Assembly: GCA_900234795.1 (NCBI GenBank)
Contig: LT962688.1
Span: forward strand, 1,200,001-1,232,000
DNA length: 32,000 bases
Direction: 5' to 3'
Source of the DNA: Methylorubrum extorquens
Lineage (GTDB): Bacteria > Pseudomonadota > Alphaproteobacteria > Rhizobiales > Beijerinckiaceae
The notes under the pieces were generated by a model. It worked only from the letters and a program-made list of their open reading frames with translations, searched no databases and was not told the origin of the DNA. The number at the start of each line of letters is the position of its first letter. The stretch's first letter is position 1. Shown here piece by piece: positions 1,801 through 27,155 of the stretch. Both the position numbers and the translations under genes were made by a program.

Positions 1801-1905
1801 TCCTTCGGGGTTTCGGGCCGGGCTCGAACCGGCGCGATCGAGGGGGCGGGATCGCCGCTCGCGACAAGTCCCAAGAAGAGCAAGTCCCATAAAGTGGAGG
1901 AAACC

Positions 1906-2196: not shown

Positions 2197-2206
2197 TCCG
2201 CTGAGG

Positions 2207-2298: not shown

Positions 2299-2344
2299 AC
2301 CGCGTGAGGGCGCTCCCAACGACAAGAAAAAGGCCAGCCGCCGA

Positions 2345-5177: not shown

Positions 5178-5181
5178 CCCG

Positions 5182-8397: not shown

Positions 8398-8421
8398 GCC
8401 GGTGCAGTTGAGGCACGCGCC

Positions 8422-9947: not shown

Positions 9948-10621
9948 GCGACGGACGCGCCGCCGCCCGGCCCCTGCCGGCGCGGCCGGAGACGATGCTC
10001 GTCATCGACGACCACCCGATCGTGATGCAGGGGGTGCGCCGGCTGGCGGAAGCCGCGGGCGTGGCCAAAATCTACGAGGCCGCCGACATCGTCTCGGGCT
10101 ACCGCCTGTTCCACCGGCACCGGCCGGCCCTCGTGGTGGCCGATCTGAGCTTTCGCGACGACGGCCTGTCCGGCCTGTCGCTGATCCGCCGCATCCGGGC
10201 GCTCGATCCGGCCGCGCGCATCCTCGTCTTCAGCATGCATGCCGACCCGGTGCTGGTCTCCCGCGCCCTGGAGGGCGGCGCGCTCGGCTTCGCGCTCAAG
10301 GATGCCGGATCGGACGCCTTCCTGGAGGCGCTCGACGCCGTCCATGCCGGGCGGGGCTACCTGCCGCACGCGCTCGCCACCGACGTGGCGATGCTGAACC
10401 GCAGCGCCCGCCCCGCCCCGCTCGCCACCTTGAGCGCGCGCGAATTGCAGATCCTGTCGCTGCTGAGCCAGGGCAAATCCTACGACGCCATCGCCAGCGC
10501 CATGGCGGTGAGCTACCGCACGATCATCAATGCCAGTTCCAGCATGCGCAAGAAGCTCGGCGTCGAGTCGCGCGCCGGGCTGGTCCAGATCGCGGTCAAC
10601 CGGCGCAACGCGCTGCTGTGA
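9944..10621 (+). CDS. mxaB: MxaB, NarL/FixJ-type response regulator (REC plus LuxR HTH)
   Basis: GTG 9944 overlaps the mxaH stop (GTGA) and has GGGAGGG 5-6 nt upstream; an alternative start is ATG 9995 (MLVIDDHP). Receiver motifs LVIDDH, LVVADLSF and FSMH. C-terminal LuxR-type HTH (LSARELQILSLLSQGKSYDAIASAMAVSYRTI). Confidence 0.85.
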   Translation: MSDGRAAARPLPARPETMLVIDDHPIVMQGVRRLAEAAGVAKIYEAADIVSGYRLFHRHRPALVVADLSFRDDGLSGLSLIRRIRALDPAARILVFSMHADPVLVSRALEGGALGFALKDAGSDAFLEALDAVHAGRGYLPHALATDVAMLNRSARPAPLATLSARELQILSLLSQGKSYDAIASAMAVSYRTIINASSSMRKKLGVESRAGLVQIAVNRRNALL

Positions 10622-11213: not shown

Positions 11214-12625
11214 TCAGGCGCGGTGGTAGGCATCCTCGAGGCGGACGATGTCGTCCTCGCCGAGGTAGCTGCCGAGTTGCACCTCGATCAGTTCGACATC
11301 GTCGTTGCCGGGATTCTCGAGGCGGTGGATGGCGCCGAGCGGGATGAAGATGTGCTCGCTCTCTCGCGGTAATCGGCGACCGTGTCGTCCACGGTGACCC
11401 GGGCGCAGCCGCGCACCACGACCCAGTGCTCGGCCCGGTGGCGGTGCTTCTGCAGTGAGAGCCGGCCGCCGGGCGCCACGGTGATCCGCTTGACCTGGAA
11501 GCCGTCGGAGGCTTCCAGCACCCGGTAGCTGCCCCAGGGGCGGTGCGAGGAGGCGTGCCACTCGGCCTGGGGCCGGCCCTTGCTGCGCAGGATCTCGACC
11601 ATCTTGCGCACGTCGCCGCAGCGGCTGCGGTCGGCCACCAGGATCGCGTCCTTCTCGGCCACCACGACGAGATCCCGCACGCCGACGAGCGAGGTCACCA
11701 TCCCGTCCGAGGAGACGAAGCAGCCCTCGGTGTCGAACAGCTCGGCCGCGCCGCGGCTGACATTGCCGAGATCGTCCCGCTCGCTGATCGCCCAGAGCGC
11801 GTTCCAGTTGCCGACATCCGACCAGCCGCAGCGCATCCGCGCGACCGCGGCGCGGCTCGTCTTCTCCATCACCGCGAAGTCGAGGGAGGTCTTGTGGGTG
11901 CCGGCAAACCCCTCGGCGTCGAGGGCGAGCGCCCCGCCCTCGTCGGCGGCGGCCTCGACCGCCAGGGCGGCGGCGGCGGCCGTGTCGGGATCGAACGCGG
12001 CGTATTCGGCGCACAGGGTGTCCGCCCGCATCAGGAAGTTGCCGGAGTTCCACAGCCAGCGGTCCGAGAGGTAGGTGGCGGCCCGCGCCGCGTCCGGCTT
12101 CTCGGCGAAGGTGTGCACCGCGTGGCAGCGCGCCTCGACGCGGGTGCCCGGCCGGATCCAGCCATATTCGGTGCTGGCGTGATCGGCCTCGATGCCGAAG
12201 GTGACGAGCCGCCCGGCCCGCGCCGCCGGCAGGGCGGAGGCGACGGCCCGCCGGAAGGCGCGCGGCTCGGTGACGATGTGGTCGGAGGGCAGCACGAGCA
12301 CCACCGCCTCGGGATCCTCCCGCGCCACCAGGGTGCAGGCGGCCAGGATCGCCGGGCCGGAATCGCGGCGCTCCGGCTCCAGCAGGAGGGTGACGCCCGC
12401 ATCGATCGCGGCGGCCTGCTTCTCGACGAGGCAGCGGTGATCGCGGTTGGCGACCACGATCGGCCGGGCGAAGAGCGGGCCCTGGAGCCGCAGCAGGGTC
12501 TGCTGGAAGGTCGAGTGCGGCCCGAGCAAAGGCACGAACTGCTTCGGCAATGAGGTGCGGGAGGTGGGCCAGAGCCGCGTTCCCGAGCCGCCGCAAAGGA
12601 TGACGGGCTGGATCCGTGCAGGCAT
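11214..12625 (-). pseudogene. manC: Mannose-1-phosphate guanylyltransferase / mannose-6-phosphate isomerase (ManC/XanB/CpsB type), interrupted by a 1-nt frameshift in the C-terminal cupin domain
   Basis: N-terminus [27 protein letters not shown] (nucleotidyl-transferase signature); AAGGA precedes ATG 12625. The frame read from 12625 gives ..[28 protein letters not shown] and then nonsense. The canonical cupin end [49 protein letters not shown] is in the adjacent frame and ends at 11214. Total length is 1412 nt (3n-1). The shift lies in GCGAGAGAGCGAGC (plus-strand 11355-11369). Confidence 0.85.
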
Positions 12626-12677
12626 CGACGGGCGTCCTTTTGTGCTGGGACTTGGAAGATGGAACTTGGAAGAAAGG

Positions 12678-14045
12678 TCAGCGGGTTTCGATCGAGCTGC
12701 GCAGGGCGGGTGCCGCCTGCGAGACGGGGCCGGGCGCGACCGCTCCGCCACGTGTGGGAGCCGGGGCCGGCGCCTCGCCGGTGCCGGCCTTGGCGGGTGA
12801 GACCTGCACGACGTCGCCCGGCAGCAGCACGGAGGTCAGGCTGGCCCGGAACGTCACCGCCCGGTCGCGCTGGGTCCGCGTCACCTCGACGTTCCAGCCG
12901 GTGGACTCGGTGCCGCCATCGGAGGCGGCGAGCCGCCGGGCACGGCTCTCCAAGAGGTCGCGGGCGATGGGCAGGCTCGCTTCCGTCTCCAGCAATTGCT
13001 GGCGGGTGGCCTGGAGATCGGCCACGACCCGGCGGCGATGGCCGTTCTCGGTGTCGCGCTGGCGCAGGGTCAGTTCGCCGGTCGCGGTGCCGTTGCGGGC
13101 GAGTTCCGCGTCGATCCGGGCGAGTTCCGCCCGGACCCGGGCATTCTCCCGCTGCCGGTCCACCATGATCGTCTGCAGGCCGTGGCCGTTATCGGTCAGT
13201 CGCGCGTAGTTGCGGACCTGGGCCTCGGTCAGCTTGACCTGTTCCTCGATCAGATTCCGCTGCTGGGTCAGCGACGTCCGCTCGGTCTCCAGCCGCTCGA
13301 CCTGCTGGCGCAGCAGGCCGACCTCGCTGCGCTCCGTCTCGCGCTGGAGCGAGAAGATCTCCTGTTCGCCGCGCATCAGCGCCGTCGCCTCCGGGCCGAT
13401 CAGTTCGTCCGAGACGAAGCTCGTCCGTCCGTCGCGCTGGGCCTCCAGCCGGAGCTGCCGGGCGCGCTGGGCGAGCCGGGCGAGTTCCAGGCTCCGCAGA
13501 CGCTCGCGCGCGGTCAGCATCTCGCCCTTGAGTTCGGTGATCGAGCGGTCGCCGACCCGCCCGCCGCCGGCCAGCGCCACCGCGCCGAGCACGGTGAGGC
13601 CGTAGCGGTAGGTGTAGCTGCCGGGCGAGCGCACCTCGCCGAGAACATAGACCGGCTTCATCTCGGAAAGGCGCAGGCTGACGGTGGCCGAGCGCAGGTA
13701 GCCGTCGTTGAGGCGGGTGCGCACCAGGGTCTCGGCCTGCTCGGGCGACAGCCCGGCGACCCGGACACGGCCGACCATCGGCAGGTTCAGGTCGCCCACC
13801 GCATCGACCACGTACTCGCCGGTCAGATCCGTCTGGCCGAAGACGACCATCGTCACCTTGTCGCCACTCGACAGCAGCAGCGCGGTCTCGGCCGAGGGCT
13901 CCGGCAAGGCCTCCGGAGCCTGCGCCTCGGCCGCGAGAGGGGTGCTCGCGAGAAGGAGCACAAGTCCCGAGCCGAGCATCGCGCCGAGCGTGGCGCCGCG
14001 GCGCCCCTCGCCGCTCCAAAACCGAAATGTCCTGAAATCGAGCAT
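12678..14045 (-). CDS. ExoF-like outer-membrane/periplasmic polysaccharide export protein (Poly_export + SLBB with a long coiled-coil insert)
   Basis: Start ATG 14045 (MLDFRTF..), chosen over the Arg-rich upstream extension. Signal peptide ..STPLAAEAQA. Poly_export-like GDKVTMVVFGQTDLTGEYVVDAVGDLNLPMVGRVRVAGLSPEQAE. SLBB-like VYVLGEVRSPGSYTY. About 200 aa of heptad-rich coiled coil. C-terminal LLPGDVVQV. Confidence 0.8.
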   Translation of the reverse strand: MLDFRTFRFWSGEGRRGATLGAMLGSGLVLLLASTPLAAEAQAPEALPEPSAETALLLSSGDKVTMVVFGQTDLTGEYVVDAVGDLNLPMVGRVRVAGLSPEQAETLVRTRLNDGYLRSATVSLRLSEMKPVYVLGEVRSPGSYTYRYGLTVLGAVALAGGGRVGDRSITELKGEMLTARERLRSLELARLAQRARQLRLEAQRDGRTSFVSDELIGPEATALMRGEQEIFSLQRETERSEVGLLRQQVERLETERTSLTQQRNLIEEQVKLTEAQVRNYARLTDNGHGLQTIMVDRQRENARVRAELARIDAELARNGTATGELTLRQRDTENGHRRRVVADLQATRQQLLETEASLPIARDLLESRARRLAASDGGTESTGWNVEVTRTQRDRAVTFRASLTSVLLPGDVVQVSPAKAGTGEAPAPAPTRGGAVAPGPVSQAAPALRSSIETR

Positions 14046-14500
14046 GCCTTCGCCTCTCAGGCCGCTTGCCGGGCGCCGGCCGGCGACGCGGCCGCTCGGG
14101 AGACTGCTCCATTCGGGAGCTCTGCCCGCTCGGCCGGTACCCCGGAGATGCCGGCCCGAAGCCCTCTGTGCTCGAGGGAGCACCGGGGAGAACCGGGAGG
14201 CGGCCGGGCTGCCGTGACGCCTTGTTTGAATGCCAGAGCCCCTTCCCGTTGGCTCTGGCTATTCGGTCACCTCGGGGTTCGCGACCGGGTTAGTCCGACG
14301 GTGCCGGTTGCGGCTCGAAGGCGCGGTTGGGAACCGATTCCGCGCGCGCCGCTTGGCCCACGGCAAGAAAGGGCTCGCACCTCCCGATCGTGGTAAACCG
14401 CCTTCGCACGCAGGACGTCGCGTCTTCCTCGAAACAGCAATGCCGAACCCGATCAAGGTCTCCTAAGCTGGGATCGACCGACAATGGGAGACGTCGAGCG

Positions 14501-15502
14501 ATGAAGAAGCGTATCCTCGTGACGGGTGGGGCCGGTTTTGTCGGCAGCCATCTGTGCGATCGACTGGTGGCGCAGGGACACGACGTGCTCGCGGTCGATA
14601 ATTTCTACACGGGCGACCGGTCGAACCTCGCCCAGCACCTGAGCAATCCGCGCTTCGAGGTCATGCGCCACGACGTGACCTTCCCGCTCTATGTCGAGGT
14701 GGACGAGATCTACAATCTCGCCTGCCCCGCCTCCCCGATCCACTATCAGCGCGACCCGGTGCAGACCACGAAGACGAGCGTGATCGGGGCCATCAACATG
14801 CTCGGGCTTGCCAAGCGGCTCGGCATCCCGATCCTCCAGGCCTCCACCAGCGAGATCTACGGCGATCCGGACGTGCACCCGCAGCCGGAGGATTATCGCG
14901 GCCTCGTCAGCGTCAGCGGCCCGCGCGCCTGCTACGACGAGGGCAAGCGCTGCGCCGAGACCCTGTTCTTCGACTACCAGCGCCGGCACCACGTGCCGAT
15001 CCGCGTGGCGCGCATCTTCAACACCTACGGGCCGCGGATGAACCGCGACGACGGCCGGGTCGTCTCGAACTTCGTCGTGCAGGCGCTGCGGGGCGAGCCG
15101 ATCACCCTCTACGGCGACGGCCGCCAGACCCGCGCCTTCTGCTTCGTCGACGACCTCGTCGAGGGGCTGATGCGCCTGATGAACGTCGAGGGCACGCTCG
15201 ACGGCGCGGTCAATCTCGGCAACCCGACCGAGGTGACCATCGCCGAGATCGCCCATCGGATCATCGCGCTCACCGGCTCGCGCTCGGAGATCGTCTACCG
15301 CCCGCTGCCGCAGGACGACCCGCGCCAGCGCTGCCCCGACATCACCCGGGCGAAGGCGATGCTGCACTGGACCCCGAAGGTCGGGCTCGACGAGGGGCTG
15401 ACGCGGACGATCGCCTATTTCGAGGCGCTGCTCTCGGCCTCCGGCTCGAGCGTGACGCCGTTCGAGCCGGCACTGCCCGAACTCGCGAAGACCGGCTCAT
15501 GA
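14501..15502 (+). CDS. uxs: UDP-glucuronate decarboxylase (UDP-xylose synthase), SDR family
   Basis: ATG 14501 has GGGAG 10 nt upstream. [16 protein letters not shown] Rossmann motif, catalytic [11 protein letters not shown], and the DGRVVSNF and GDGxQTRxFCFVDD motifs typical of UXS enzymes. 333 aa. Confidence 0.85.
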
Positions 15503-16278
15503 GCGCACCCCTTCCCCGCGTTCCGATCCTGGGGGTGCCGGTCAGCGCGATCACGCTGGACGAGGCGGTGATGGCGGTCGAGGACTGGATCCTCGCCCGC
15601 CAGCGCCACTACGTCTGCATCACCGGCGCCCACGGCGTCATCGAGTGCCAGACCGATGGGAGCTTGCGCGCGATCCACGAGCGCGCCGGCCTCGTCACGC
15701 CGGACGGGATGCCGCTGGTCTTCATGGCGCGCCGGCTCGGCTTCCCGCGCACGCAGCGGGTCTACGGACCCGACCTCATGCGCGCGCTGACGGCCCTGTC
15801 GGCCCGCAAGGGCTACCGGCAATACTACTTCGGAGGCGGCTCCGGCCTGCCCGAGCGGCTGGCCGCGCGGATGACGGGGCAGTTCCCGGACCTGCCCATC
15901 GCCGGCACCTTCTCGCCCCCCTTCCGCCCGACCACGCCGGAGGAGGACGAGGCGATCGTCGCGCGCATCAACGCGGCGGCGCCCGACATCCTGTGGGTGG
16001 GCCTCAGCACCCCGAAGCAGGAATACTGGATGGCGCGCCACCGCGACCGGCTCGAGGTGCCGGTCATGGTCGGCGTCGGCGCGGCCTTCGACTTCCTCGC
16101 CGGCACCAAGCGGCAGGCGCCGGCCTGGATGCAGCAGCGCGGGCTCGAATGGGCCTTCCGCCTCGGCACCGAGCCGCGCCGGCTGGCCCGCCGCTACGGG
16201 CGGATCGTGCCCGAATTCATGCTGCGCGCCGCGTTCCAGCTCCTGAACGCGCCGTCGCGACCGCGCCGATCCTTCTAG
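15499..16278 (+). CDS. WecG/TagA/CpsF-family (GT26) glycosyltransferase
   Basis: ATGA overlap with the uxs stop. 259 aa. Family-typical [28 protein letters not shown] and [10 protein letters not shown] motifs. Confidence 0.8.
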
Positions 16279-16330
16279 AGGCCATCCCCAGGCCTCTCGG
16301 AAAAACAGTTCGCATCAATAGCTTGGCACT

Positions 16331-16360
16331 TGTCTCGGGCGGGGAGACCCGCCCGAGACA
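16331..16360 (+). terminator. Perfect GC-rich hairpin downstream of the uxs-GT26 pair (putative intrinsic terminator lacking a U-tract)
   Basis: TGTCTCGGGCGGG (16331-16343), loop GAGA, CCCGCCCGAGACA (16348-16360). A 13-bp perfect stem, 53 nt after the GT26 stop codon. No T-run follows. Confidence 0.45.
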
Positions 16361-16656
16361 GGCGCCTTGGACCCTGATCTGGAGACGTGGCCCGATCCGA
16401 CGCGATCGAGCCACGTCTTCCGTCATGTTCAGCCCAGAGGCTGTCCCGACGCCGAAATCGCGCGGGGCCGGGGCTCTTGCGGGGCACCCGGCACGCGCTC
16501 CGTCATGCTCACTTTCGACGGGCCGGGCCCCTCTTGGCCGCGCAGCGCCCCAAAGGATTACGGTAGCGCGAAAGTATGATCGCCCATCGAGAAGATATGC
16601 TCAGTCGGCCCTCGAAATAAGAATGGAAGCGCCAAAGCAGAAAAGGCGTCACACCC

Positions 16657-17658
16657 ATGTCGAAGAGCGCAGTTGTTACCGGGGCCGGCGGTTTCATTGG
16701 TGGACATCTGGTGACGTACCTGCGTCGCCACGGCTATCACGTCCGCGGCGTCGATATTAAATATCCCGATTTCGGGAACAGTGACGCGGACGAGTTCATG
16801 CTCGCCGACCTTCGGTCCTTCGAGGAGTGCCGCGAGGCGGTGAAGGGCGTTGACGAAGTCTACAATCTCGCCGCCGACATGGGCGGGATCGGCTACATCT
16901 CCGGCGCGCACGCCTCGATCACGTTCAACAACACGATGATCAGCGCGCAGATGCTGAAGGCCGCCTTCGACGCACGGGTCGAGCGGTTCCTGTTCTCCTC
17001 CTCGGCCTGCGTCTACCCGCAGCATCTGCAGGATGTGCCGAGCGTGATCCCGCTGAAGGAGGAGGATGCCTTCCCGGCCGCGCCGGAGGAAGGCTACGGC
17101 CTGGAGAAGCTCTACACGGAGAAGCTCTGCCAGTACTTCACCGAGGATTACGGCTTCCCGACCCGCTCCGTCCGCTTCCACAACGTCTACGGGCCGCTCG
17201 GCACCTATGACGGCGGCAAGGAAAAGGCGCCCGCCGCGATCTGCCGCAAGATCGCGCGCACGCCCGATGGCGGCACGATCGACATCTGGGGCGACGGCCA
17301 GCAGACCCGCTCGTTCATGTACGTCGACGACTGCGTCGAGGGCATCTACCGCATCATGCAGTCGGACCATCACGGGCCGCTCAATCTCGGCACCGACGAA
17401 CTCGTCAGCATCAGCGGCCTCGTCGATCTCGTGGCCGAAGTCTCCGGCAAGACGATCCACAAGGCGTTCGACCTGAGCAAGCCGCAGGGCGTGCGCGGGC
17501 GCAACAGCGACAACACCCGCCTGCGCGAGGTTCTGGGCTGGGAGCCCCTCATCCACCTGCGCGAGGGCCTGCAGCCGACCTACCGCTGGATCAACGAACA
17601 GATCCAGCAGGCACAGGCGGCCCAGGCGGACGCCGCCCCCCGGCAGGCCGCCGAGTAA
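16657..17658 (+). CDS. GDP-mannose 3,5-epimerase homologue (GME family SDR; predicted GDP-L-galactose/GDP-L-gulose forming)
   Basis: 333 aa. Long collinear motif matches to plant GME as I remember it: NLAADMGG(I/M)G(Y/F)I, NNTMIS, SSAC(V/I)YP, YGLEKL, RFHN(V/I)YGP.GT..GG.EKAPAA.CRK, WGDG.QTRSF, GVRGRNSDN, LGW.P. Rossmann motif VTGAGGFIGGHL. Confidence 0.75.
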   Translation: MSKSAVVTGAGGFIGGHLVTYLRRHGYHVRGVDIKYPDFGNSDADEFMLADLRSFEECREAVKGVDEVYNLAADMGGIGYISGAHASITFNNTMISAQMLKAAFDARVERFLFSSSACVYPQHLQDVPSVIPLKEEDAFPAAPEEGYGLEKLYTEKLCQYFTEDYGFPTRSVRFHNVYGPLGTYDGGKEKAPAAICRKIARTPDGGTIDIWGDGQQTRSFMYVDDCVEGIYRIMQSDHHGPLNLGTDELVSISGLVDLVAEVSGKTIHKAFDLSKPQGVRGRNSDNTRLREVLGWEPLIHLREGLQPTYRWINEQIQQAQAAQADAAPRQAAE

Positions 17659-17718
17659 GCGCGGCGATCCCGCGCTTTCCGCCCGCCCTCCCGCCCGTCA
17701 CGCAGCACGAGCGAGCCC

Positions 17719-19242
17719 ATGCCGGACGTCGATGTCGCAAATACCAGTCTCCTGCCGGCCGGCGGAGCCGGCTGGCAGGGACGACTTCGAGAGCGTCTCA
17801 AGGAGCGTCTCGGACCGGTCCGGTCCGGGCGCGCCGAGACGATCGCCGAGGCACGGCGCCGGATCGTCACCGGTGCCCTGCTCGCGGGCGACACCGTCGC
17901 CGTGCTGGTCGCCTGCGGGGGAAGCCTTCTCATGATGGCGGCGGCCGGAGCGGCCACCGGTCTCGCGCCGGCCATGCTGACCGGCTGGTGCGCCCTGCAG
18001 ATCTGCGCACTGGCCCTGTGCGGCCTCTACGAACCGATCGAGGCGGAGCCGATCGAGCGGCTCCGCCGCCGCGGTCTGGCCGCCGCCCTCGCGTTCGCCG
18101 CCGCCATCCTGGTCGGCGGCGGGCCCTGGTCCTGGCCGTGGTCCTGGGCCGCCACCGGGATCGCCGCCCTTCTCTCCATCCCGCTCGGGCATTACGCGGA
18201 GGGGTTCGTGCGTGCGCGTCTCGTCCGGCGGGGCGTGTGGGGGGCGGCGACCATCGTCTACGGCGAAGGTGCCGCCGAGCTGGCCCGCAGCCTCGCCGCG
18301 CGGCCGGAACTCGGGCTCCGACCGATCGGCATCGTCCGCGCGGCCGATCAAGTGGTCGAACCCTTCCGCACCGTCGTGTCGCCGGGGCCAGGAGAGGACA
18401 CCGAGCGGGCGGCCGAGCGCATGGCGAGCCTGCTGGAGGCGGCCGAGGTCGCCATCTGCACGCCCGGCGAACGCGAGCCCACCCGCTTCGCCTGGCTCAC
18501 CCGGCACCCGTTCCGGCAGGTGCTCGTAGCACACCATGCGCCGGAGGTGGAGACCGTGCGCCTCAAGACCCGCTGCCTCGGTCCCGTGGTCGGGCTCGTG
18601 GTGCGCCGGGCGATCTTCCTGCCGCACAACCTGCGCCTCAAGCGGGCGCTCGACCTTGCCGTGACGGTGCCGGGCCTTCTCGTCTGCGGACCGCTGATCG
18701 GTGTGCTGGCGCTCGCGGTGAAGATCGCCGATCCGGGCCCGGCCTTCTACGTCCAGCCCCGCGTCGGGCGGGATGGCCGCACCATCCGCGTGTACAAGCT
18801 GCGCAGCATGTTCCGCGACGCGGAGGCGCGGCTCGCCGAGCATCTGGCCGCCGACGAGGCCGCCCGGCGCGAATGGGACCGGTTCTGCAAGCTGCGCAAC
18901 GATCCGCGCGTCCTGCCCGGCATCGGCGGCTTCATCCGGCGTACCAGCCTCGACGAGCTGCCCCAGCTCCTCAACGTGCTGCGCGGCGACATGAGCGTGG
19001 TCGGGCCCCGCCCCTTCCCCGCCTACCACACCGAGCGGTTCGGCCCGGCCTTCCAGGCGCTGCGGGCGAGCGTGCCGCCGGGCCTGACCGGACTGTGGCA
19101 GATCTCGGCCCGCAGCGACGGCGACCTCGCGGTCCAGGAGCAGCAGGACAGCTTCTACATCCGCAACTGGTCGATCTGGACCGACCTGTACATCCTTCTC
19201 GAGACGGTGCCGGCGGTGCTCAGCGCCAAGGGCGCCCGCTGA
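17719..19242 (+). CDS. Polyprenyl-phosphate sugar-1-phosphate transferase (WbaP/ExoY-type priming glycosyltransferase)
   Basis: 507 aa. N-terminal multi-TM region. C-terminal bacterial sugar-transferase domain: KRALDL..P.FY.Q.RVG..G..I.VYKLRSM, LRNDPRV..IG.FIRRTSLDELPQL.NVLRGDMS.VGPRP. Confidence 0.85.
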   Translation: MPDVDVANTSLLPAGGAGWQGRLRERLKERLGPVRSGRAETIAEARRRIVTGALLAGDTVAVLVACGGSLLMMAAAGAATGLAPAMLTGWCALQICALALCGLYEPIEAEPIERLRRRGLAAALAFAAAILVGGGPWSWPWSWAATGIAALLSIPLGHYAEGFVRARLVRRGVWGAATIVYGEGAAELARSLAARPELGLRPIGIVRAADQVVEPFRTVVSPGPGEDTERAAERMASLLEAAEVAICTPGEREPTRFAWLTRHPFRQVLVAHHAPEVETVRLKTRCLGPVVGLVVRRAIFLPHNLRLKRALDLAVTVPGLLVCGPLIGVLALAVKIADPGPAFYVQPRVGRDGRTIRVYKLRSMFRDAEARLAEHLAADEAARREWDRFCKLRNDPRVLPGIGGFIRRTSLDELPQLLNVLRGDMSVVGPRPFPAYHTERFGPAFQALRASVPPGLTGLWQISARSDGDLAVQEQQDSFYIRNWSIWTDLYILLETVPAVLSAKGAR

Positions 19243-19312
19243 GGAGGAGCCCCGGCGGCCCCTCCTCCCCTCGACGCGCTTCCCTTTTTCGATCCCGACG
19301 CAGGCGTGACCC

Positions 19313-21517
19313 ATGGATCCGTTCCACGAAGCCGACCCGCCCGGCGGCGGGCGATCGCTGACCTCCCATTACGAGGCGGTCACCGGGCACGCCCTCGCGG
19401 TGCTCTGGCGGCGCCGGATCATGATCGCCTCGATCGCCGGGCTGTCGGCGCTGGCGGCGGGGGCGGCCACGCTCGCCCTGCCGCCGAGCTACACCGCCGA
19501 GGTGCTGCTCCAGTTCGATTTCGGCCAGACCCAGGACGTGCGCGGGACGGGCAAGTCCGGCCCGCAGATCGCCCTCGAACCGGCCTCGGTCGTCGAGAGC
19601 GAGGCGCGCATCATCCGCTCCTTTGCCATCGCGCAATCCGTGGCGGGCCGGCTCGAGGACGCCGGGCAAGCCAAGCAGGCGGCCCAGGCGGGGCCTGCCG
19701 CCAAGGAGGCATCCGCGGGATGGGTCGGCTCCCTGAGGCAGGCCCTTGAGAACCGGGTTCAGGCCGCGCTGCCCGCCCTCCCCGGCACCCGTCCGGAAGA
19801 AACCGCGCAGCAGGAGACCGAGCGAGACGCCCAGGCGCAGCGGCTCCTGCGCGGGCTCACCGTCGGCAACGACGCCAAGGCCTATCTGATCACCATCGGC
19901 TACCGCGACCGCGATCCGAAGCGGGCGGCGGAGACCGCCAACACCTTCGCCACCGAGTATCTCGCCCGCAAGATGCAGGCGGCTTCGCTCGCCACCGAGC
20001 GGGCGAGCCGCTGGTACGCCGAGCAGATCCAGGTCTCGCGCGGTGAACTCGCCCGCCTGGACAGCGAGATCGACGCCTTCCGCAAGCGCACGGGCTTCGT
20101 CGAGTCGGTGCGCGAGGGCGTGGACCTGCGCGAGCAACAATTGCGCGACGCCCTCACCGAACTCTCCAGCGCCTCGGCCAAGCGGCTGGCGGAGGAGGCC
20201 CGGCTGCAGCGCGCCGGGGACGTGATGCGCTTCGGCGGCGTGCCGAACGCCTCCGACACGACGATCTCGCCGGTGATCCAGCAGATGCTGGCGGATGACA
20301 GCAAGCTGCGCCAGGAACTGGAGCAGCTCACCGCCGTCTCCGGCGACAACCACCCCAGCGTGCTGCGGCTCAAGGCCTCGATCGCCGCGCTCCAGCAGCG
20401 GCTTCAGCTCCGCATGGCCGAGGTTCTGAAACTGGTCGAGGTCGATCTCGGCGCCGCCCGCGGGCTCGAAGCCTCGGCCGAGGCGCGGGTCGCGACCGTG
20501 CGCCGCTCGCTCATCGAGAGCAAGGCGCTCGAATCGAAGCTCCGCGCACTCCAGGCCGACGCGACCGCCGCCCGCGACCGCCTGCGCGTCCTCGACGAGG
20601 GCTACCAGACCGCCAACGCGCTGAGCGAACTCAAGCCGGTGATGGCGCAGATGCTGGCGCCAGCCAAGGTGCCGACCCTGCCCACCGGGCCCGGCCTTGG
20701 CCTCGTGCTCGGCCTCGGCCTGTTCGCCGGGGCCGGCGCCGGCTCGGTGCTGGCGCTCGGGCTCGACCGCCGCGACCGGGGCTACCGCAGCCAGGGCGAG
20801 ATGGAGGCCGAGACCGGCCTGCCCTGCCTCGCGCTGCTGCCGAACCGGCCGGCGGGTGCGCAATCGGGCGAGCGCCTGGAGCAGGATCTCCTCTTCCGCG
20901 AGGCCGTGCGGGCGGCGGTGGCCGAACTCGTCGCGGTGCGCGAGCCGCTCAAGGTCGTCCTCGTCACCTCGGCGATGCCCGGTGAGGGCAAGTCCGTCGT
21001 CGCCCGCTCGGTGGCGCGCTCGCTCGCCGCGATGGGGCGCCGGGTGCTGATCCTCGACGGCTCGCCCCGCCGCGCGGCGATCGAGGACGGCCGCCACGGC
21101 AATCTCGGACACGAGACGCCGACCGACGACGAGGAGGCGGAGGGCCGCATCTCGACCATCCGCCGCGTCTCCGGCCTCAAGGACGGGCACGACATCTACG
21201 CCGAGCCGACCTTCGGCATGCTCGTGCGGGAGGCGCGCGAGCGCTACGACATCATCCTCGTGGAGGTGCCCCCGGTGCTGCTGCTGGGCGACGTCGCACT
21301 CCTGCGCCAGCACGCCGATGCCGTGGTCCATGTCGTGGCGTGGCACGGCACGCAGAAGGCCGCCGTCACCGCGAGCCTCGCCTATATGCGCCGGCTCGGG
21401 CTGACGGTCGCCGGGCTCGTCCTGAACAAGGTCGATCTGAAGCGCCACGAGGGCCGCGCCGCGGATCGCGGCACGCTCTACCGCGACTTCTCGCACTACT
21501 ACCGGAACAGCGCGTGA
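19313..21517 (+). CDS. Polysaccharide co-polymerase / BY-type tyrosine autokinase (Wzc/ExoP/GumC-like, PCP-2a)
   Basis: 734 aa. N-terminal TM plus Wzz-like region, a long coiled coil, and a second TM (GLGLVLGLGLFAGAG). C-terminal P-loop VLVTSAMPGEGKSVVA and Walker B-like DIILVEVPP. The tail contains Tyr residues (LYRDFSHYYRNSA). Confidence 0.85.
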   Translation: MDPFHEADPPGGGRSLTSHYEAVTGHALAVLWRRRIMIASIAGLSALAAGAATLALPPSYTAEVLLQFDFGQTQDVRGTGKSGPQIALEPASVVESEARIIRSFAIAQSVAGRLEDAGQAKQAAQAGPAAKEASAGWVGSLRQALENRVQAALPALPGTRPEETAQQETERDAQAQRLLRGLTVGNDAKAYLITIGYRDRDPKRAAETANTFATEYLARKMQAASLATERASRWYAEQIQVSRGELARLDSEIDAFRKRTGFVESVREGVDLREQQLRDALTELSSASAKRLAEEARLQRAGDVMRFGGVPNASDTTISPVIQQMLADDSKLRQELEQLTAVSGDNHPSVLRLKASIAALQQRLQLRMAEVLKLVEVDLGAARGLEASAEARVATVRRSLIESKALESKLRALQADATAARDRLRVLDEGYQTANALSELKPVMAQMLAPAKVPTLPTGPGLGLVLGLGLFAGAGAGSVLALGLDRRDRGYRSQGEMEAETGLPCLALLPNRPAGAQSGERLEQDLLFREAVRAAVAELVAVREPLKVVLVTSAMPGEGKSVVARSVARSLAAMGRRVLILDGSPRRAAIEDGRHGNLGHETPTDDEEAEGRISTIRRVSGLKDGHDIYAEPTFGMLVREARERYDIILVEVPPVLLLGDVALLRQHADAVVHVVAWHGTQKAAVTASLAYMRRLGLTVAGLVLNKVDLKRHEGRAADRGTLYRDFSHYYRNSA

Positions 21518-21777
21518 TGGGCGCGCAATCCGCAGCGAGCCCGGGGGTGGCGATCCTCGTGAGCGAATGGACCTTCGCCTGCGCGGCCTGCGGCTCCCCC
21601 GCCGTCACCTGGCCGGCGGACCCGACCGCCGAGGCGGCCATCGCCTGCGGCGGCTGCGCCCGGCCTTTGGGCACCCTCGCCGCCTTCCGGGCCGGGATCG
21701 AGCGGGTCCTGGCCACCCACCGCCCCCACGGGCAGGGCCAGGGCGGCGAGGCTTTCCCACCCACGACCTCGCCCTGA
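21517..21777 (+). CDS. Hypothetical 86-aa protein with a CxxC-N19-CxxC zinc-ribbon-like motif
   Basis: ATG 21517 overlaps the kinase stop (TGATG). GC3 is very high. Motif FACAACGSP...IACGGCARP. Its last codons and TGA stop lie inside REP-like element B. Confidence 0.45.
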   Translation: MGAQSAASPGVAILVSEWTFACAACGSPAVTWPADPTAEAAIACGGCARPLGTLAAFRAGIERVLATHRPHGQGQGGEAFPPTTSP

Positions 21778-21900
21778 GGTGCTGCGCAGCAGCCTCGAAG
21801 GATCCTCCGGATCCCGTGCGGTCCCCGGACGATCCTTCGAGGCTGGACGATCCTTCGAGGGCCGCGGGCACGGCCCCCCTCAGGATGAGGCGGAGGGATG
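21772..21900. repeat. Palindromic REP/MITE-like intergenic element, copy B
   Basis: Shares CCTGAGGTGC, GAAGGATCCTCC, GATCCTTCGAGG and CCTCAGGATGAGG with copy A. Contains an internal tandem duplication of GGACGATCCTTCGAGG (21827-21842 and 21845-21860). Confidence 0.75.
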
Positions 21901-21931
21901 GGTTTTCCGCCTCACCGCGCGGGCGTCGCGC

Positions 21932-23360
21932 TCAGACGAACAGGATATGACCCGCGTTCAACTCGGCCTTCTGGGTGTCGGCGAGCCAGAGCGTGTCCGA
22001 TCCAGAGCCGATCGCGACATCGGTGCCGACATCCTGCGCCGCGGCCAGGACGGCCTCGAACGAGCCGAACATCGACCGGCTGATCTCGATCGCGTCGGGC
22101 GCGGAACCGCCGGTCTCGAAATCCTCGACCCAATCGGTGCCGTTGCCGGCCTTGAACGCGAACCGGTCGGCCCCGGCCCCGCCCCAGAGATGATCGGTGC
22201 CGCTGCCGCCGTCGAGCCGGTCGTTGCCGGCCCCGCCATAGAGCGCATCGTCGCCGGCCAGCCCGTTGAGCGTGTCGTTGCCGTCCATCCCGTCGAGGTC
22301 GTCGGCGGCGTTCGATCCGGTCATCGTCTCGGCCCCGGCGGTGCCGTCGCGGTTGAGGCTGGTGCCGGAGGGTGAGGCGGCGACCGGGGGGCGGTGCCGG
22401 GCTGTCGCCCGTGACGACTCCGACGACGGTTCCGACCGTACCCGCCACCCAATCGAACACGTTGTGGATCGGCGTCATCGGCGTGGCCGAGGGCGCTGCC
22501 GACACGTCCGCGCCGGCCGAGGACGGGCCCCAGGCGATGTTGTTGGCCACAGCCGGGTCCGTGTAGGTCGAGTCGACGATCGACACGCCGTCGCCGGTCG
22601 CGTTCCAGATGACGGCGTTGGACAGGGGATCACCCCGGCCCTGGTCGGCGGCGATGTTGTCGAAGGAGCGGGTGTCGACGAAGGACACGTCGTCCGAATA
22701 GGACGAGAAGCCGCCATTGCCCATGTGGATCACGTCGACGTTCTGGACCTGGCCACCCTGCGAATTGCCCTCGAACATCACTCCGACGCCGCTCGGCGAA
22801 TTGTTGCCGTCGATCACGCCGTTGGTAATCGAGACGTTCTGGCTGTCGATGATCGAGACGTTGTCCTCGACATGCGACCCGTTCGGATCGTTGGTGACGG
22901 CGAAATCCGAGAGGCTGCCGTTCGGTGACTGGTAGAACTGGACGAACTGGCCCGACGGATAGAGCCCGTGGAAGTCGTGGCCCTCAATGTGGGAGAGCGT
23001 CGCGCCGGGCGACTGGCCGAGATAGATGCCGGTGCCGTTGTCCTGCAGCGTCACGTGCGAGGCGGTGAAATCGGGCGCATTGACGACCCGGATGCCCGTG
23101 GCCTCGCCGGCCTGGCCCTGGTTGCCGTTGGGCGGATCGGAATGGACGATCAGGCTGTTCTCGACGGTGACGCCGCTGGAATCCTCGACGACGATGCCGT
23201 TGCCGTCGGCGTGGTGAATGGTGACGTTGCGGATGACGACATTGTCGTGCTCGACGCGGATGGCGTTGCCGTCGGAGACCCAGAGATCCAGATTTTCGAT
23301 GACCTGTCCGTCATGCGTCGTACGGATGGGCGTGGTGCTTGTGGTCAAACCCGTGGGCAT
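21932..23360 (-). pseudogene. Secreted (T1SS-type) parallel beta-helix / RTX calcium-binding protein, paralogue 1. The reading frame is broken by a +1 insertion in a G6 run (or by a sequencing error)
   Basis: ATG 23360 with a GGAG RBS. No Sec signal peptide (MPTGLTTSTTPIRTTHDGQ). PbH1-like repeats (NVVIRNVTIHHADGNGIVVEDSSGVTVENSLIV..). The frame is lost after ..GDSPAPPP at the G-run 22386-22391. The next frame continues VAASPSGTSLNRDGTAGAETMTGSNAADDLDGMDGNDTLNGLAGDDALYGGAGNDRLDGGSGTDHLWGGAGADRF (GGxGxD nonapeptides) and ends ..AELNAGHILFV. Length 1429 nt (3n+1). Confidence 0.8.
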
Positions 23361-23417
23361 ATTTGCTCCATTTGTTAATATTACAACAAAATCAACAACT
23401 ATATGAATAGAATCAGT

Positions 23418-23443
23418 GGATCGACCTAGCAAATCTGCAACGT
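23418..23443 (-). promoter_or_regulatory. Conserved upstream motif TACGTTGCAGATTT-N6-TCGATC (paralogue 1 copy)
   Basis: Plus-strand GATCGA-N6-AAATCTGCAACGTA at 23418-23443, 58-83 nt upstream of start codon 23360. An identical composite motif with identical spacing lies at 25284-25309, upstream of paralogue 2. The flanking sequence has diverged. Confidence 0.35.
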
Positions 23444-23561
23444 AATTAATCTGCGCTAGGCCATGCGGCCTATTCGGCCTGGGAAGTCATTAACCGCAAA
23501 GCTTTTAGCCAAGGCACCGCCGCCCGATATTTTTCGCAGCGCACAACCGATGTGGCCGTGT

Positions 23562-23577
23562 GGCCACGCTTGATCGG
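23562..23577 (-). promoter_or_regulatory. Second conserved upstream island GGCCACGCTTGATCGG (paralogue 1 copy)
   Basis: A 16-nt exact match to 25426-25441. The offsets from the two start codons are 202 and 204 nt. Confidence 0.25.
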
Positions 23578-23733
23578 GTAGAGCGCGATTCGGTGGCGCG
23601 CCGCCGGCCGGGGCCGCGGAGGACCCCGCGACCACGACCGAAAGGCGCTTCAAGCCTGCCCCCGCGCAGCATCCGGCGACCGGCCCGCGTCCCTTCGGAC
23701 GCGACGGTGCACCGGACGCTTCGCGGGAAATGC

Positions 23734-25222
23734 TCAGACGAAGAGGAAGTCGCCGGCCGAGAGCTGCGCCTTGTGAACGTCGGCGAGCCACAGCGTGTCG
23801 GCGCCCGAGGTGATGGCGACATCGGAGCCGACATCATGGGCCGCGGCGAGCAGGGCGTTGAACGAACCGAACATCGCCTTGCTCACTTCGACGACGTCCT
23901 GCGCGGTGCCGCTGAGCTGGAAGTCCTCGACCCAGTCGGTGCCGTTGCCGGCCTTGAACACGAAGTGGTCCGCGCCGGTGCCACCCCAGAGGTGGTCGGT
24001 GCCGCTGCCGCCGTCGAGCCGGTCGTTGCCGGCCCCGCCGTAGAGGCGATCGTCGCCGGCCAGCCCGTTGAGCGTGTCGTTGCCGCCCCGCCCGTCGAGG
24101 TCGTCGGCGAAGCGCGAGCCGGTCATCGTCTCGGAGGACGCCGTGCCGTCGCGGTCGATGCCCGTGCCGGCCGGGGCCGTGGCCGTCGGGGCCGTCGGGG
24201 ACGGCGCCGGGGACGGCGCCGGAGTCGGGGCCGGGGCCGGGGTCGGTGCAGGAGTCGGGGCAGGCGTCGGCACCGGATCCGCAACCGGAGCGCTGCCGGT
24301 CGCCGTCCCGTCGAACACGTTGTGGATCGGCGTCATCGGCGTGGCCGAGGGCGCTGCCGACACGTCCGCGCCGGCCGAGGAGGTTCCCCCAGACGATGTT
24401 GTTGGCGACCCCTGGGTCCGTGTAGGTCGAGTCCTCGATCGTGACGTTGTGGCCGGTCGCGTTCCAGATCAGCCCGTTCGACAGCGACGCGCCGCGGCCC
24501 TGGTCGCCGGCATCGTTGTCGAAGGAGCGGGTGTCGACGAAGGACACGTCGTCCGAGTAGGACGAGAAGCCGCCATTGCTCATGTGGATCACGTCGACGT
24601 TCTGGACGTGGCCACCCTGCGAATTACCCTCGAACATCACGCCGGCACCGCTCGGCGAGTTGTTGCCGTCGATCACGCCGTTGGCGATCGAGACGTTCTG
24701 GCTGTCGATGATCGAGACGTTGTCCTCGACATGCGAGTGGCTCGCATCGTTGGTGACAGCGAAATCCGAGAGGCTGCCGTTCGGCGACTGGTAGAACTGA
24801 ACGAGCTGACCGCCGGGGAACGGCCCGTGGAAGTTGTGGCCCTCGATGTAGGAGAGCTTCGCGTTCGGGGACTGGCCGAGATAGATGCCGGTGCCGCTGT
24901 CCTGCAGGGTCACGTGCGAGGCGGTGAAGCCGGACGCGTTGACGACCCGGATGCCGGTGGTCTCCGCATCGGTCTCGCCCCCGTTGCCCGTGGGCGGATC
25001 GGAATTGACGATGAGGCTGTTCTGGACGGTGACGCCGCTGACGTCCTCGACGACGATACCGTTGCCGTCGGCGTGGTGAATGGTGACGTTGCGGATGACG
25101 ACGTTGTCGTGATCGACGCGGATGGCGTCGCCGTCGGAGACCCAGAGATCCAGATTTTCGATAACCTGTCCGTCGTACGTCGTGCGGATGGGGGTGGTGC
25201 TATAGGTTTGGCCCGCAGGCAT
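23734..25222 (-). pseudogene. Secreted (T1SS-type) parallel beta-helix / RTX calcium-binding protein, paralogue 2. The reading frame is broken by a +1 insertion in a C5/G5 run (or by a sequencing error)
   Basis: ATG 25222 with an AGGAG RBS. No signal peptide. The beta-helix region is collinear with paralogue 1 and highly similar by eye. The frame is lost after ..VANNIVWG at plus-strand C-run 24386-24390. Removing one base restores WGTSSAGADVSAAPSATPMTPIHNVFD, which matches paralogue 1. A Pro/Thr/Ala linker follows, then five GGxGxD repeats and the C-terminus ..AQLSAGDFLFV. Length 1489 nt (3n+1). Confidence 0.8.
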
Positions 25223-25631: not shown

Positions 25632-27155
25632 TCAAATCGTCTGGTTGTAAGCGCCCACCTCCGGGTGCTGGCGCAGCACCCCATCCACCGCCGCGAACAT
25701 CTCGCGAAGCCGCGCTTCGGAGACCGGGCTCTCCACCACCACCACGAGTTCCGGCTTGTTCGAGGAGGCCCGCACCAGCCCCCAGGTGCCGTCGGCGGTG
25801 GTCACGCGCACGCCGTTGACCGTCACGAGACTGGTGATCGGATGGCCGCCCACCGGCTCGCCCGACGCCTCGAGCGCCCGGAACCGCTCGGTCACCGCAT
25901 CGACCACGCCGTACTTCACCTCGTCGGCGCAATGCGGCGACATGGTCGGCGAGCCCCAGGTCTTCGGCAGCGCCCGGTAGAGGTCGGCCATGGTCTGCCC
26001 CGGATTGCGGTCGAGCATCTCGATCACCGCGATCGCCGTGAGCAGGCCGTCGTCGTAGCCGCGGCCGACCGGCGCGTTGAAGAAGAAGTGGCCCGACTTC
26101 TCGAAGCCGGCCAGCGCCGAGAGTTCGTTGACGCGGCGCTTGATGTAGGAATGCCCCGTCTTCCAGTAATCGCTGCGCACGCCGCGGGCCTGCAACTCGG
26201 GATCGGCAGCGTAGAGACCGGTCGATTTCACGTCGACCACGAAGGTCGCGTTCGGGTGAAGCTTCGACAGGTCGCGGGCCAGCATGACGCCGATCTTGTC
26301 GGCAAAGATCTCCTCGCCCTCGTCATCGACCACGCCGCAGCGGTCGCCGTCGCCGTCGAAGCCGAGGCCGACATCGGCACCGGTCTCGCGCACCTTGTCG
26401 GCGATGGCGTGCAGCATCGCCATGTCCTCGGGGTTGGGGTTGTAGCGCGGGAAGCTGTGATCCGGCTCGACATCGAGCGGGATCACCTCGACGCCGAGCC
26501 GCTCCAGAAGCGCGGGCGCGAAGGCGCCGGCCGTGCCGTTGCCGCAGGCCGCCACGACCTTCAGCTTTCGCGAGACGGGTTTGGCGCGCGCCACGAGGTC
26601 GTCGAGATAGACCTGAGCGAAGTCGGAGACGAATTCGTAGGCACCGCCGTCGCGGTACTGGAACGCGCCCGTGGTGACGATCTCCTTGAGGCGGCCCATC
26701 TCGTCGGGGCCGAAGGTCATCGGGCGCTCGGCGCCCATCTTCACGCCGGTCCAGCCGTTGTCGTTATGCGAGGCGGTGACCATGGCCACGCAGGGGCAAT
26801 CGAGGGCGAACTGGCCGAAATAGGCCATCGGCGAGAGCGCGAGCCCGATATCCTTCACCCGCAGCCCCGCCGCCTGCATCCCGGCGATCAGCGCGAGCTT
26901 GATCGAGGCGGAGTAGGCGCGAAAGTCATGGCCGGTGACGATGTCGGGGCGCACGCCGCGCTCATGGATCAGCGTGCCGAGGCCGAGGCCCAGCGCCTGG
27001 ACGCCCATCAGGTTGATCTCCTGCGGGAACAGCCAGCGGGCGTCGTACTCGCGAAAGCCGGTGGGCTTGACCATCGGCAGTTGCTCGAAGGCGAAGGTGT
27101 TCGGCTCAAGCTTCGGAACGGGCGTGGGAAAGGCCTTGGAGGTATCGAAGGACAT
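25632..27155 (-). CDS. Phosphomannomutase / phosphoglucomutase (alpha-D-phosphohexomutase family)
   Basis: Start ATG 27155 (MSFDTSKAF). The ORF-track extension up to 29243 is read-through into the antisense frame of the neighbouring gene. Active-site loop TASHNDNGWTG, metal-binding GFDGDGDRCG and sugar-binding GFEKSGH. 507 aa. Confidence 0.9.
   Translation of the reverse strand: MSFDTSKAFPTPVPKLEPNTFAFEQLPMVKPTGFREYDARWLFPQEINLMGVQALGLGLGTLIHERGVRPDIVTGHDFRAYSASIKLALIAGMQAAGLRVKDIGLALSPMAYFGQFALDCPCVAMVTASHNDNGWTGVKMGAERPMTFGPDEMGRLKEIVTTGAFQYRDGGAYEFVSDFAQVYLDDLVARAKPVSRKLKVVAACGNGTAGAFAPALLERLGVEVIPLDVEPDHSFPRYNPNPEDMAMLHAIADKVRETGADVGLGFDGDGDRCGVVDDEGEEIFADKIGVMLARDLSKLHPNATFVVDVKSTGLYAADPELQARGVRSDYWKTGHSYIKRRVNELSALAGFEKSGHFFFNAPVGRGYDDGLLTAIAVIEMLDRNPGQTMADLYRALPKTWGSPTMSPHCADEVKYGVVDAVTERFRALEASGEPVGGHPITSLVTVNGVRVTTADGTWGLVRASSNKPELVVVVESPVSEARLREMFAAVDGVLRQHPEVGAYNQTI

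Follow-up and report, generated by a model that had tools for sequence, protein, structure and literature searches.

What does a homologue of a plant ascorbate-pathway enzyme do in a bacterial exopolysaccharide (EPS) locus? This question is raised by a stretch of 32,000 nucleotides of Methylorubrum extorquens DNA (contig LT962688.1 of assembly GCA_900234795.1, positions 1,200,001 to 1,232,000), which we refer to as the window and number from its first letter. In the ORF listing, an ATG-to-stop open reading frame (ORF) spans exactly 16657..17658 of the forward (+) strand and encodes an extended short-chain dehydrogenase/reductase (SDR) of 333 aa. An initial annotation had likened this protein motif by motif to the GDP-mannose 3,5-epimerase (here GME or GM35E) of plants. 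All seven motifs that it quoted, NLAADMGGIGYI, NNTMIS, SSACVYP, YGLEKL, RFHNVYGPLGTYDGGKEKAPAAICRK, WGDGQQTRSF, and GVRGRNSDN, can be read in the translation, which is far beyond chance. With a GC content of 0.64/0.42/0.89 at its three codon positions, in a window of 69.8% GC, the ORF is typical of a real gene; an overlapping antisense ORF has a third-position GC (GC3) of 0.62. The identical protein is encoded on many chromosomes of the M. extorquens group, among them FP103042.2 and CP001298.1 (which we take to be those of M. extorquens DM4 and CM4), CP019322.1, and CP021054.1, the last of which is 99.9% identical to the window over 21 kb. The closest species representative in GTDB, Methylobacterium sp. 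Leaf123, has a protein of 97% identity.

Structural databases and phylogeny both group the protein with the plant enzymes. In a phmmer search of all PDB chains, the five best matches were plant GMEs (8SG0, 2C59, 2C54, 2C5A, and 2C5E), with E-values of 5e-101 to 8e-100 and 338-342 bits over residues 6-326. The next class, comprising UDP-GlcA epimerase and GDP-fucose synthase, begins at about 1e-30/2e-30, a gap of 70 orders of magnitude. Identity is 47-48% to Arabidopsis GME, 30% to Escherichia coli Fcl, and 25-26% to Gmd, GalE, and RfbB; the Arabidopsis sequence used here is consistent with the PDB alignment and has catalytic residue numbers that agree with the literature. In a neighbor-joining tree built from 310 columns, the window protein, 15 bacterial homologues drawn from different phyla, and Arabidopsis GME form one clade in 200/200 bootstraps, with GMER (E. 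coli Fcl) as its sister, and the bacterial members have diverged from plant GMEs by about 52% in sequence. The likeness to plant GME is thus borne out, and neither the best matches nor the tree places the protein with another SDR clade.

Profile searches are less specific, as Pfam returns only generic SDR domains, Epimerase (PF01370, 170 bits) and GDP_Man_Dehyd, and NCBIfam holds no GM35E/GME model. The best NCBIfam match is NF047922, GDP-L-fucose synthase (150 bits; cutoff 500), and the gmd model TIGR01472 scores 28.6 bits against a cutoff of 415. Both models fall far below their cutoffs, in agreement with the earlier statement that the protein matches neither GMD nor GDP-fucose synthase.

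The residues that define GM35E are a S143/Y174/K178 triad, a C145/K217 acid/base pair, and R306, R243, and N203, whereas GMER has a His in place of K217 and a Lys in place of R306 (PMC8787198). In the window protein, the triad is S116, Y147, and K151, and the acid/base pair is C118/K190. R282 corresponds to R306 of the Arabidopsis enzyme and N176 to N203, while Arg216 in the WGDGQQTRSF motif is the equivalent of R243, which contacts the diphosphate. The NAD+ motif reads GAGGFIGG, with G9, G12, and G15 aligned to G34, G37, and A40 of Arabidopsis, so the window protein has a canonical GxxGxxG where the plant enzyme has GxxGxxA.

These residues are conserved well beyond the window. Across 80 bacterial homologues all eight diagnostic residues are kept, bar one S-to-T change: Y147 and K151 are invariant, Ser gives way to Thr in a single sequence and is kept in the other 80, and R282, N176, and the R243-equivalent Arg are invariant in 81 sequences. 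The columns that discriminate between families were read against control sequences verified from the E. coli K-12 record. They hold C/K/R in the window protein, C/H/K in Fcl, which has His at the base column and Lys at the R306 column, and T/G/Y in GalE; Gmd and RfbB both have E at the Cys column, and the T and E of Gmd correspond to S and C in the window protein. The invariance of both acid/base members and of every named substrate-contact residue argues for full double epimerization on GDP-mannose. The sequence evidence fully supports assignment of 16657..17658 as a GME/GM35E orthologue, and not as a GMD, GMER, or GalE, and we predict with good confidence that the protein is a bona fide GDP-D-mannose 3,5-epimerase (EC 5.1.3.18).

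[quoted passage not shown] Cys118 and Lys190 would then deprotonate and reprotonate C5 and C3 from opposite faces, with Arg282 lowering the pKa of the catalytic Cys118. The Arabidopsis enzyme has the same fold, core length, and clade, its 47-48% identity extends over ~320 residues, and its catalytic and substrate-contact residues are all identical. The differences are that the window protein is without the ~27-residue N-terminal extension and ~25-residue C-terminal tail of plant GME, and that its predicted role is to supply a glycan precursor in an EPS locus, whereas plant GME serves ascorbate biosynthesis. The GM35E of Methylacidiphilum fumariolicum (UniProt I0K0X9) is the only bacterial one characterized in vitro (PMC6678494), so the earlier remark that very few bacterial GMEs have been characterized is accurate. 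Like the window protein, it is a self-sufficient bacterial GM35E with the conserved Cys/Lys/Arg set, and its gene, too, has a glycosyltransferase neighbor in a context of cell-envelope glycans. Its source is a thermophilic verrucomicrobium, and a role in lipopolysaccharide (LPS) synthesis has been proposed for it.

GDP-L-fucose synthase (GMER/Fcl/WcaG) resembles the window protein in using a Cys acid and in catalyzing 3,5-epimerization of a GDP-4-keto sugar (PMC8787198), and it is the identity given in the NCBI record of a 90%-identical protein. The best NCBIfam match and the position of GMER as sister clade would favor the same name. However, GMER has a His base and a Lys as Cys activator where the window protein has Lys and Arg, and it requires the product of GMD together with NADPH and yields a 6-deoxy sugar; the window holds no GMD to supply GDP-4-keto-6-deoxymannose. 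With a score of only 150 of the 500 bits required and 30% identity to E. coli Fcl as against 47% to Arabidopsis GME, this identity is effectively refuted, and we regard it as highly improbable. GMD itself was rejected on its 28.6/415 bits and on the S and C found at the T/E positions of Gmd.

The name in that record reflects a wider inconsistency. Within one 90%-identity cluster (P0001/P0121), the names include 'GDP-L-fucose synthase', 'GDP-mannose 3,5-epimerase', 'GDP-D-mannose 3',5'-epimerase', 'NAD-dependent epimerase/dehydratase family protein', and 'nucleoside-diphosphate-sugar epimerase', and the record of the representative, P0001, reads 'GDP-L-fucose synthase [Methylorubrum aminovorans]'. 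This is the misannotation warned of in PMC8787198, where it is explicitly listed as common for GM35E. A scan of a genome collection found at least 374 species-level bacterial genomes with a relative, in Alphaproteobacteria, Acidobacteriota, Chloroflexota, Actinomycetota, and other groups. The best 80 of these (62-97% identity), on which our neighborhood counts are based, come from Methylobacteriaceae, Bosea, Bradyrhizobium, Aurantimonas, Roseomonas, Acidobacteriota, Chloroflexota (including SAR202), Actinomycetota, Gemmatimonadota, and Bacteroidota. Many of the relatives are already named GDP-D-mannose 3',5'-epimerase in IMG, and NCBI mostly calls them 'NAD-dependent epimerase/dehydratase family protein'. 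The description of the gene as plant-type and rare was therefore overstated: it is an uncharacterized member of a recognized and widespread enzyme class and not a plant-specific oddity. Bacteria are not mentioned in a paper on plant GME evolution (PMC6132023), and more bacterial GM35E representatives are wanted for biocatalysis (PMC8787198).

The genes around GME include components of a Wzx/Wzy-dependent EPS or capsular polysaccharide (CPS) pathway, namely a priming transferase, a Wza-type outer-membrane exporter of the OPX type, and a Wzc-type co-polymerase of the PCP/BY-kinase type. Along the window, manC and wza lie on the reverse (-) strand, followed by uxs, GT26, GME, PGT, and wzc on the + strand, and then by genes for two beta-helix proteins, a mutase, and a malectin-repeat protein. 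The priming transferase (PGT; 17719..19242, +, 507 aa) is a large polyprenyl-phosphate hexose-1-phosphate transferase of the Bac_transf/WbaP-EPS_sugtrans type, with 185 bits to Bac_transf and a score above the cutoff of TIGR03025. It is followed by a Wzc-like polysaccharide co-polymerase/BY-kinase with a Wzz domain and a P-loop domain (19313..21517, +, 734 aa). The divergent wza (12678..14183, -) encodes a Poly_export + SLBB protein whose orthologues are called at 455 aa. A BY-kinase Wzc together with Wza is a hallmark of Wzy-dependent EPS/CPS export.

Upstream of GME lie genes for a second SDR and for a glycosyltransferase of the GT26 (WecG/TagA/CpsF) family (15499..16278, +, 259 aa). The SDR (14501..15502, +, 333 aa; the start follows orthologue calls, the mechanical ORF running from 14327) is a UDP-glucuronate decarboxylase, or UDP-xylose synthase (UXS), with an E-value of 1e-119 to human UXS1 as against 5e-42 for the next class, which confirms the adjacent UDP-xylose synthase proposed initially. 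Two genes that would supply GDP-mannose are also present. The bifunctional mannose-1-phosphate guanylyltransferase/mannose-6-phosphate isomerase, manC/cpsB (11214..12625, -), scores 471 bits against the cutoff of 373 of the equivalog model TIGR01479, and an alpha-D-phosphohexomutase with four PGM_PMM domains (25632..27155, -, 507 aa) belongs to the PMM/PGM family. The initial annotation had called the latter a phosphomannomutase; membership in the PMM/PGM family stands, but its specificity may be that of a PMM or of a PGM, as no equivalog cutoff is reached and the best NCBIfam model, PgmG, gives 279 bits against a cutoff of 600.

The association of GME with GT26 and PGT extends across phyla. 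GT26 stands next to GME in 52-54 of the 80 loci; the higher count is of copies that run in the same direction as GME (47 upstream, 5 downstream, and 2 overlapping), typically with a gap of ~90 nt. It is the neighbor most conserved across phyla. A Bac_transf priming PGT lies within 1.5 kb of GME in 63/80 loci, and either PGT or GT26 is found in 71/80. UXS (at least 45% identity) lies within 10 kb in 34/80 loci and ManC in 20/80. Strict conservation of the order uxs-GT26-GME-PGT-wzc, with divergent wza and manC, is seen in the M. extorquens group and Bosea. Without UXS, Wza, or Wzc nearby, the GT26-GME pair is kept in Acidobacteriota, Chloroflexota, and Actinomycetota. Where GT26 is missing, the neighbors of GME are GT4 transferases, PGT, Wzy, or Wzc, and thus the context of GME is always glycan assembly. 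GT26, GME, and the priming transferase form a module conserved across four phyla.

A carbamoyltransferase gene stands just upstream of GME in two loci that are without GT26, one from an uncultured bacterium (L041:5936-7675) and one from a SAR202 Chloroflexota metagenome-assembled genome (L060:6988-8706). In the former a GT4 gene follows GME, an arrangement that recalls the bleomycin sugar genes (carbamoyl-mannose plus L-gulose).

Which enzyme would use the product? GT26 is our candidate L-hexosyltransferase and the most likely user. It matches Glyco_tran_WecG (PF03808) with 205 bits and TagA (7MPK) with an E-value of 3e-35. Like TagA/TarA and WecG, with which it shares a fold family, it keeps the catalytic Asp (D69; D65 in TagA) and the tail arginines R221, R228, and R231 (R214, R221, and R224 in TagA), and TagA residues K166, Q167, and D191 are conserved in its GT26 subfamily. 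TagA/TarA and WecG act as the second transferase on a lipid-diphosphate-linked sugar (PMC8784642), and the TagA ligand contacts that we mapped from that paper include N39, E41, and the uracil-stacking Y137, which are contacts of the UDP-ManNAc(A) type. N39, E41, and G136-Y137 are common to TagA and the verified E. coli WecG, whereas at these places the GT26 of the window reads G43, H45, and P140-P141, after which come FR and an insertion of 3 residues. The P-P pair is general in the subfamily (first position 137/138, second position 138/138). The donor contacts of the UDP-ManNAc(A) type are thus not found in the window GT26, and the changed residues are compatible with a different donor.

We considered whether P-P-F marks those GT26 enzymes that are encoded next to GME, and rejected this, as the whole subfamily has P-P-F, including 29 well-flanked copies with no adjacent GME. 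Because P-P-F is present regardless of GME adjacency, it cannot serve as evidence for the use of GDP-L-galactose (hereafter GDP-L-Gal). Our tentative proposal, which we hold to be possible rather than probable, is that GT26 consumes GDP-L-Gal or GDP-L-gulose (hereafter GDP-L-Gul) and adds the L-hexose as the second sugar onto the undecaprenyl-diphosphate-linked hexose made by the adjacent PGT.

The layout of the genes suggests two transcription units. The stop codon of uxs overlaps the start of GT26 by 4 nt. GT26 ends at 16278 and is followed by a 378-nt spacer before GME, in which a 15-bp GC-rich hairpin, CTTGTCTCGGGCGGG-GAGA-CCCGCCCGAGACAGG (16329..16362, +), lies 50 nt past the GT26 stop. 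The hairpin is terminator-like but lacks a T-tract, and the minimum free energy of its region is -58.2 kcal/mol (z = -3.6). GME, PGT, and wzc are co-directional, with gaps of 60 nt (GME-PGT) and 70 nt (PGT-wzc), and a scan of 14000-22200 for sigma-70 and terminator consensus sequences found no terminator-like site or T-tract between them. Directly 5' of the GME start, a relatively AT-rich block of ~110 nt (16546..16656, +) is nearly invariant in six Methylorubrum/Methylobacterium species, in which the distal part of the GT26-GME spacer diverges or is missing.

This block may be a regulatory leader or, presumably, the promoter of GME-PGT-wzc. The same consensus scan found no promoter-like site in it, although the sigma-70 consensus is uninformative for an alphaproteobacterial promoter; its only + strand promoter-like match lies inside uxs. 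Compared with Rfam at gathering thresholds, the window as a whole gave no match, so the conserved leader belongs to no known riboswitch or RNA family. From its position, the hairpin would separate a uxs-GT26 unit from the GME unit, with GME as the first gene of GME-PGT-wzc. The proposal that GME heads a unit with the priming transferase and Wzc is therefore well matched by the short gaps and by the spacer with its hairpin and conserved leader.

If the protein acts as we predict, ManC (PMI/GMP) and the PMM/PGM-family mutase would supply its GDP-mannose, and a glycosyltransferase would draw the L-hexose nucleotide from the equilibrium into an undecaprenyl-diphosphate-linked repeat unit. This repeat unit would belong to an exopolysaccharide or capsule exported by Wza and Wzc, and its assembly would begin with the adjacent PGT and GT26.

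Several observations weigh against such a role. No Wzx, Wzy, or further glycosyltransferases (GTs) were found among the ORFs scanned in the 32-kb window, nor among the called genes within 10 kb on either side in ten conspecific assemblies. A literature search found no report of L-galactose or L-gulose in Methylobacterium glycans, and the one Methylobacterium EPS structure that we found, from a paper-machine isolate, is an all-D pyruvylated galactan (PMC6801904); a search on GDP-mannose epimerase in Methylobacterium/Methylorubrum EPS returned nothing relevant. Within the window, GT26 is coupled translationally to UXS and is set apart from GME by the hairpin, and manC is frameshifted in this particular sequence. 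Finally, the reciprocal association is looser than that seen from GME. In a metagenome scan with a 24-sequence GT26 alignment, only 10/34 homologues flanked on each side by 1.3 kb or more have an adjacent GME, which weakens any strict one-to-one pairing, and 6/34 have an adjacent UXS.

Three metagenome contigs (L084, L088, and L089) carry a GT26 that is 62-65% identical to that of the window, in a UXS-GT26 arrangement and, in L084 and L088, with a PGT. No GME lies within 4 kb of GT26 on any of them, so the GT26-UXS link can exist without an adjacent GME.

Since Wzx, Wzy, and further GTs are not found nearby, the repeat unit is not predictable and the link to a specific polymer is indirect; these genes must lie elsewhere in the genome. 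The prediction of an EPS containing xylose and an L-hexose can be read as one about the precursors available, but not about a defined repeat unit.

The same gap in the locus could mean that a true GM35E provides its product for LPS O-antigen, for glycans on a protein or lipid, or for a small molecule, and not for a Wzy-type EPS; its proximity to wza, wzc, and the PGT would then matter only in part. The Methylacidiphilum enzyme has been proposed to serve LPS, and two other bacterial homologues, BlmG of Streptomyces verticillus and the A201A-pathway GM35E, provide glycosyltransferases with GDP-L-gulose or GDP-L-galactose for antibiotics. In some phyla, moreover, GME stands beside a carbamoyltransferase and a GT4 with no export genes. 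However, BlmG and the A201A enzyme, whose activity is inferred, take part in secondary-metabolite glycosylation and are encoded outside PGT/Wzc/Wza loci, whereas the window gene sits in the strict uxs-GT26-GME-PGT-wzc order of the M. extorquens group and Bosea, with the Wzc and Wza typical of Wzy-dependent export. We consider a non-EPS destination quite unlikely.

A shift in the reaction itself, so that a GM35E-family enzyme would act at C5 only, make mainly GDP-L-gulose, or use another GDP-sugar such as a GDP-heptose or GDP-6-deoxyhexose, also seems unlikely. BlmG of the bleomycin cluster has been proposed as a C5-only epimerase that delivers GDP-L-gulose, and both characterized GM35Es yield GDP-L-Gul besides GDP-L-Gal (PMC6678494, PMC8787198). 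The product used would be set by the downstream transferase, and the divergence of the bacterial clade from the plant enzymes leaves room for such a change. Against this stand the invariant acid/base pair and substrate contacts named in PMC8787198, the co-localization of ManC with GME in a quarter of the loci (20/80), and the absence from the window of heptose or 6-deoxy pathway genes such as GMD. We therefore favor a GDP-D-mannose 3,5-epimerase whose GDP-L-Gal or GDP-L-Gul product, by inference from its neighbors, would enter an exported polysaccharide. The sequences establish the family of the protein, its catalytic residues, and a conserved gene order, whereas its activity, the ratio of its products, the transferase that takes them up, and the kind of polymer are predictions.

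The frameshift in manC appears to be a property of the source sequence rather than of the species. The span 11214-12625 is 1412 nt, which is not a multiple of 3, and a 2-nt insertion in a GA repeat (GAGAG to GAGAGAG) at ~11359-11365 on the minus strand shifts the last ~50 codons, including the second cupin motif. ORF 11288..12751 gives the frame of the N-terminal ~460 codons, and the canonical C-terminus (...AYHRA*) lies in another frame that ends at 11214. In a DNA alignment with five orthologous loci from related species, the insertion is present in the window only, and in all ten assemblies with an identical GME, manC lacks the insertion and encodes an intact protein of 469 aa, cupin domain included.

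Compared with the 99.9%-identical CP021054.1 (L163), the window has six indels (10663, 11359-60, 21874, 22386, 23659, and 24386), all in homopolymer or dinucleotide tracts, and those other than that of manC are single bases in C or G homopolymers. Because the insertion is absent from the 15 related assemblies and the other indels lie in homopolymer tracts, the manC lesion, like the other indels, is probably an error of the source assembly; a private mutation of the source strain is possible. A conserved programmed frameshift was rejected, as the insertion is absent in all 15 related assemblies examined. Hence the initial identification of ManC was right as to family, but its reading frame is broken by the GA insertion, and the full route from Man-6-P to GDP-L-Gal/GDP-L-Gul holds for the species, through intact orthologues, and not literally for this sequence.

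Two right-handed beta-helix proteins are encoded convergently to wzc (21912-25222, -), the first with RTX repeats in its orthologues. The indel at 22386 shifts the C-terminal RTX (HemolysinCabind) part of this protein (ORF 21912..23432), and the HemolysinCabind domain is accordingly seen in the orthologues and not in the window ORF; those at 23659 and 24386 fall within or close to the following gene, of 495 aa. The beta-helix proteins resemble type I-secreted (T1SS) polysaccharide glycanases or C5-epimerases and might act on the EPS, modifying or cleaving it. The gene that comes directly downstream of the one for PMM/PGM (27233-31963, -) runs off the window; it encodes a giant protein of secreted type, 1853 aa in orthologues, that has at least four malectin domains. 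The M. extorquens group retains this protein, but none was found close to GME in other genera.

On the other side, a methanol dehydrogenase (MDH) accessory cluster occupies the first 10.6 kb (1-10621) and directly abuts the EPS genes. It encodes SBP/MxaJ-like, cytochrome c, MDH beta subunit, MoxR ATPase, DUF58, and VWA proteins, as well as Polyketide_cyc2 and beta-propeller proteins, MoxZ, and a LuxR-type response regulator, and its juxtaposition with the EPS genes is conserved in Methylorubrum (L001-L005, L161-L170). In one of these loci (L161:6023-7458; GCA_029504475.1), wza falls into pieces of 115 aa and 226 aa in an otherwise intact locus, a sign that certain strains or assemblies have a broken gene for EPS export.

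As a model methylotroph and production host, M. extorquens is open to genetic work. If the GM35E were confirmed along with the candidate L-hexosyltransferase, it would offer an accessible system that shows how bacteria use GDP-L-Gal/GDP-L-Gul, and a route to the first bacterial polysaccharide L-galactosyl- or L-gulosyltransferase. The same identification would help to correct the annotation of a family in which one cluster is named generic epimerase/dehydratase, GDP-L-fucose synthase, or GME. Should the proposed reading of GT26 be true, the GT26 family would gain its first GDP-sugar-dependent members and bacterial polysaccharides their first L-galactosyltransferase family, in a subfamily marked by the changes of G-Y to P-P and of N39/E41 to G/H. 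GT26-GME-PGT would then be an ancient mobile initiation cassette of Alphaproteobacteria, Acidobacteriota, Chloroflexota, and Actinomycetota, and exopolysaccharides with L-Gal or L-Gul in their reducing-end disaccharide would be a common feature of soil bacteria. The wide spread of this module suggests that L-hexose exopolysaccharides may be under-reported in soil and phyllosphere bacteria, because routine composition analyses omit absolute configuration.

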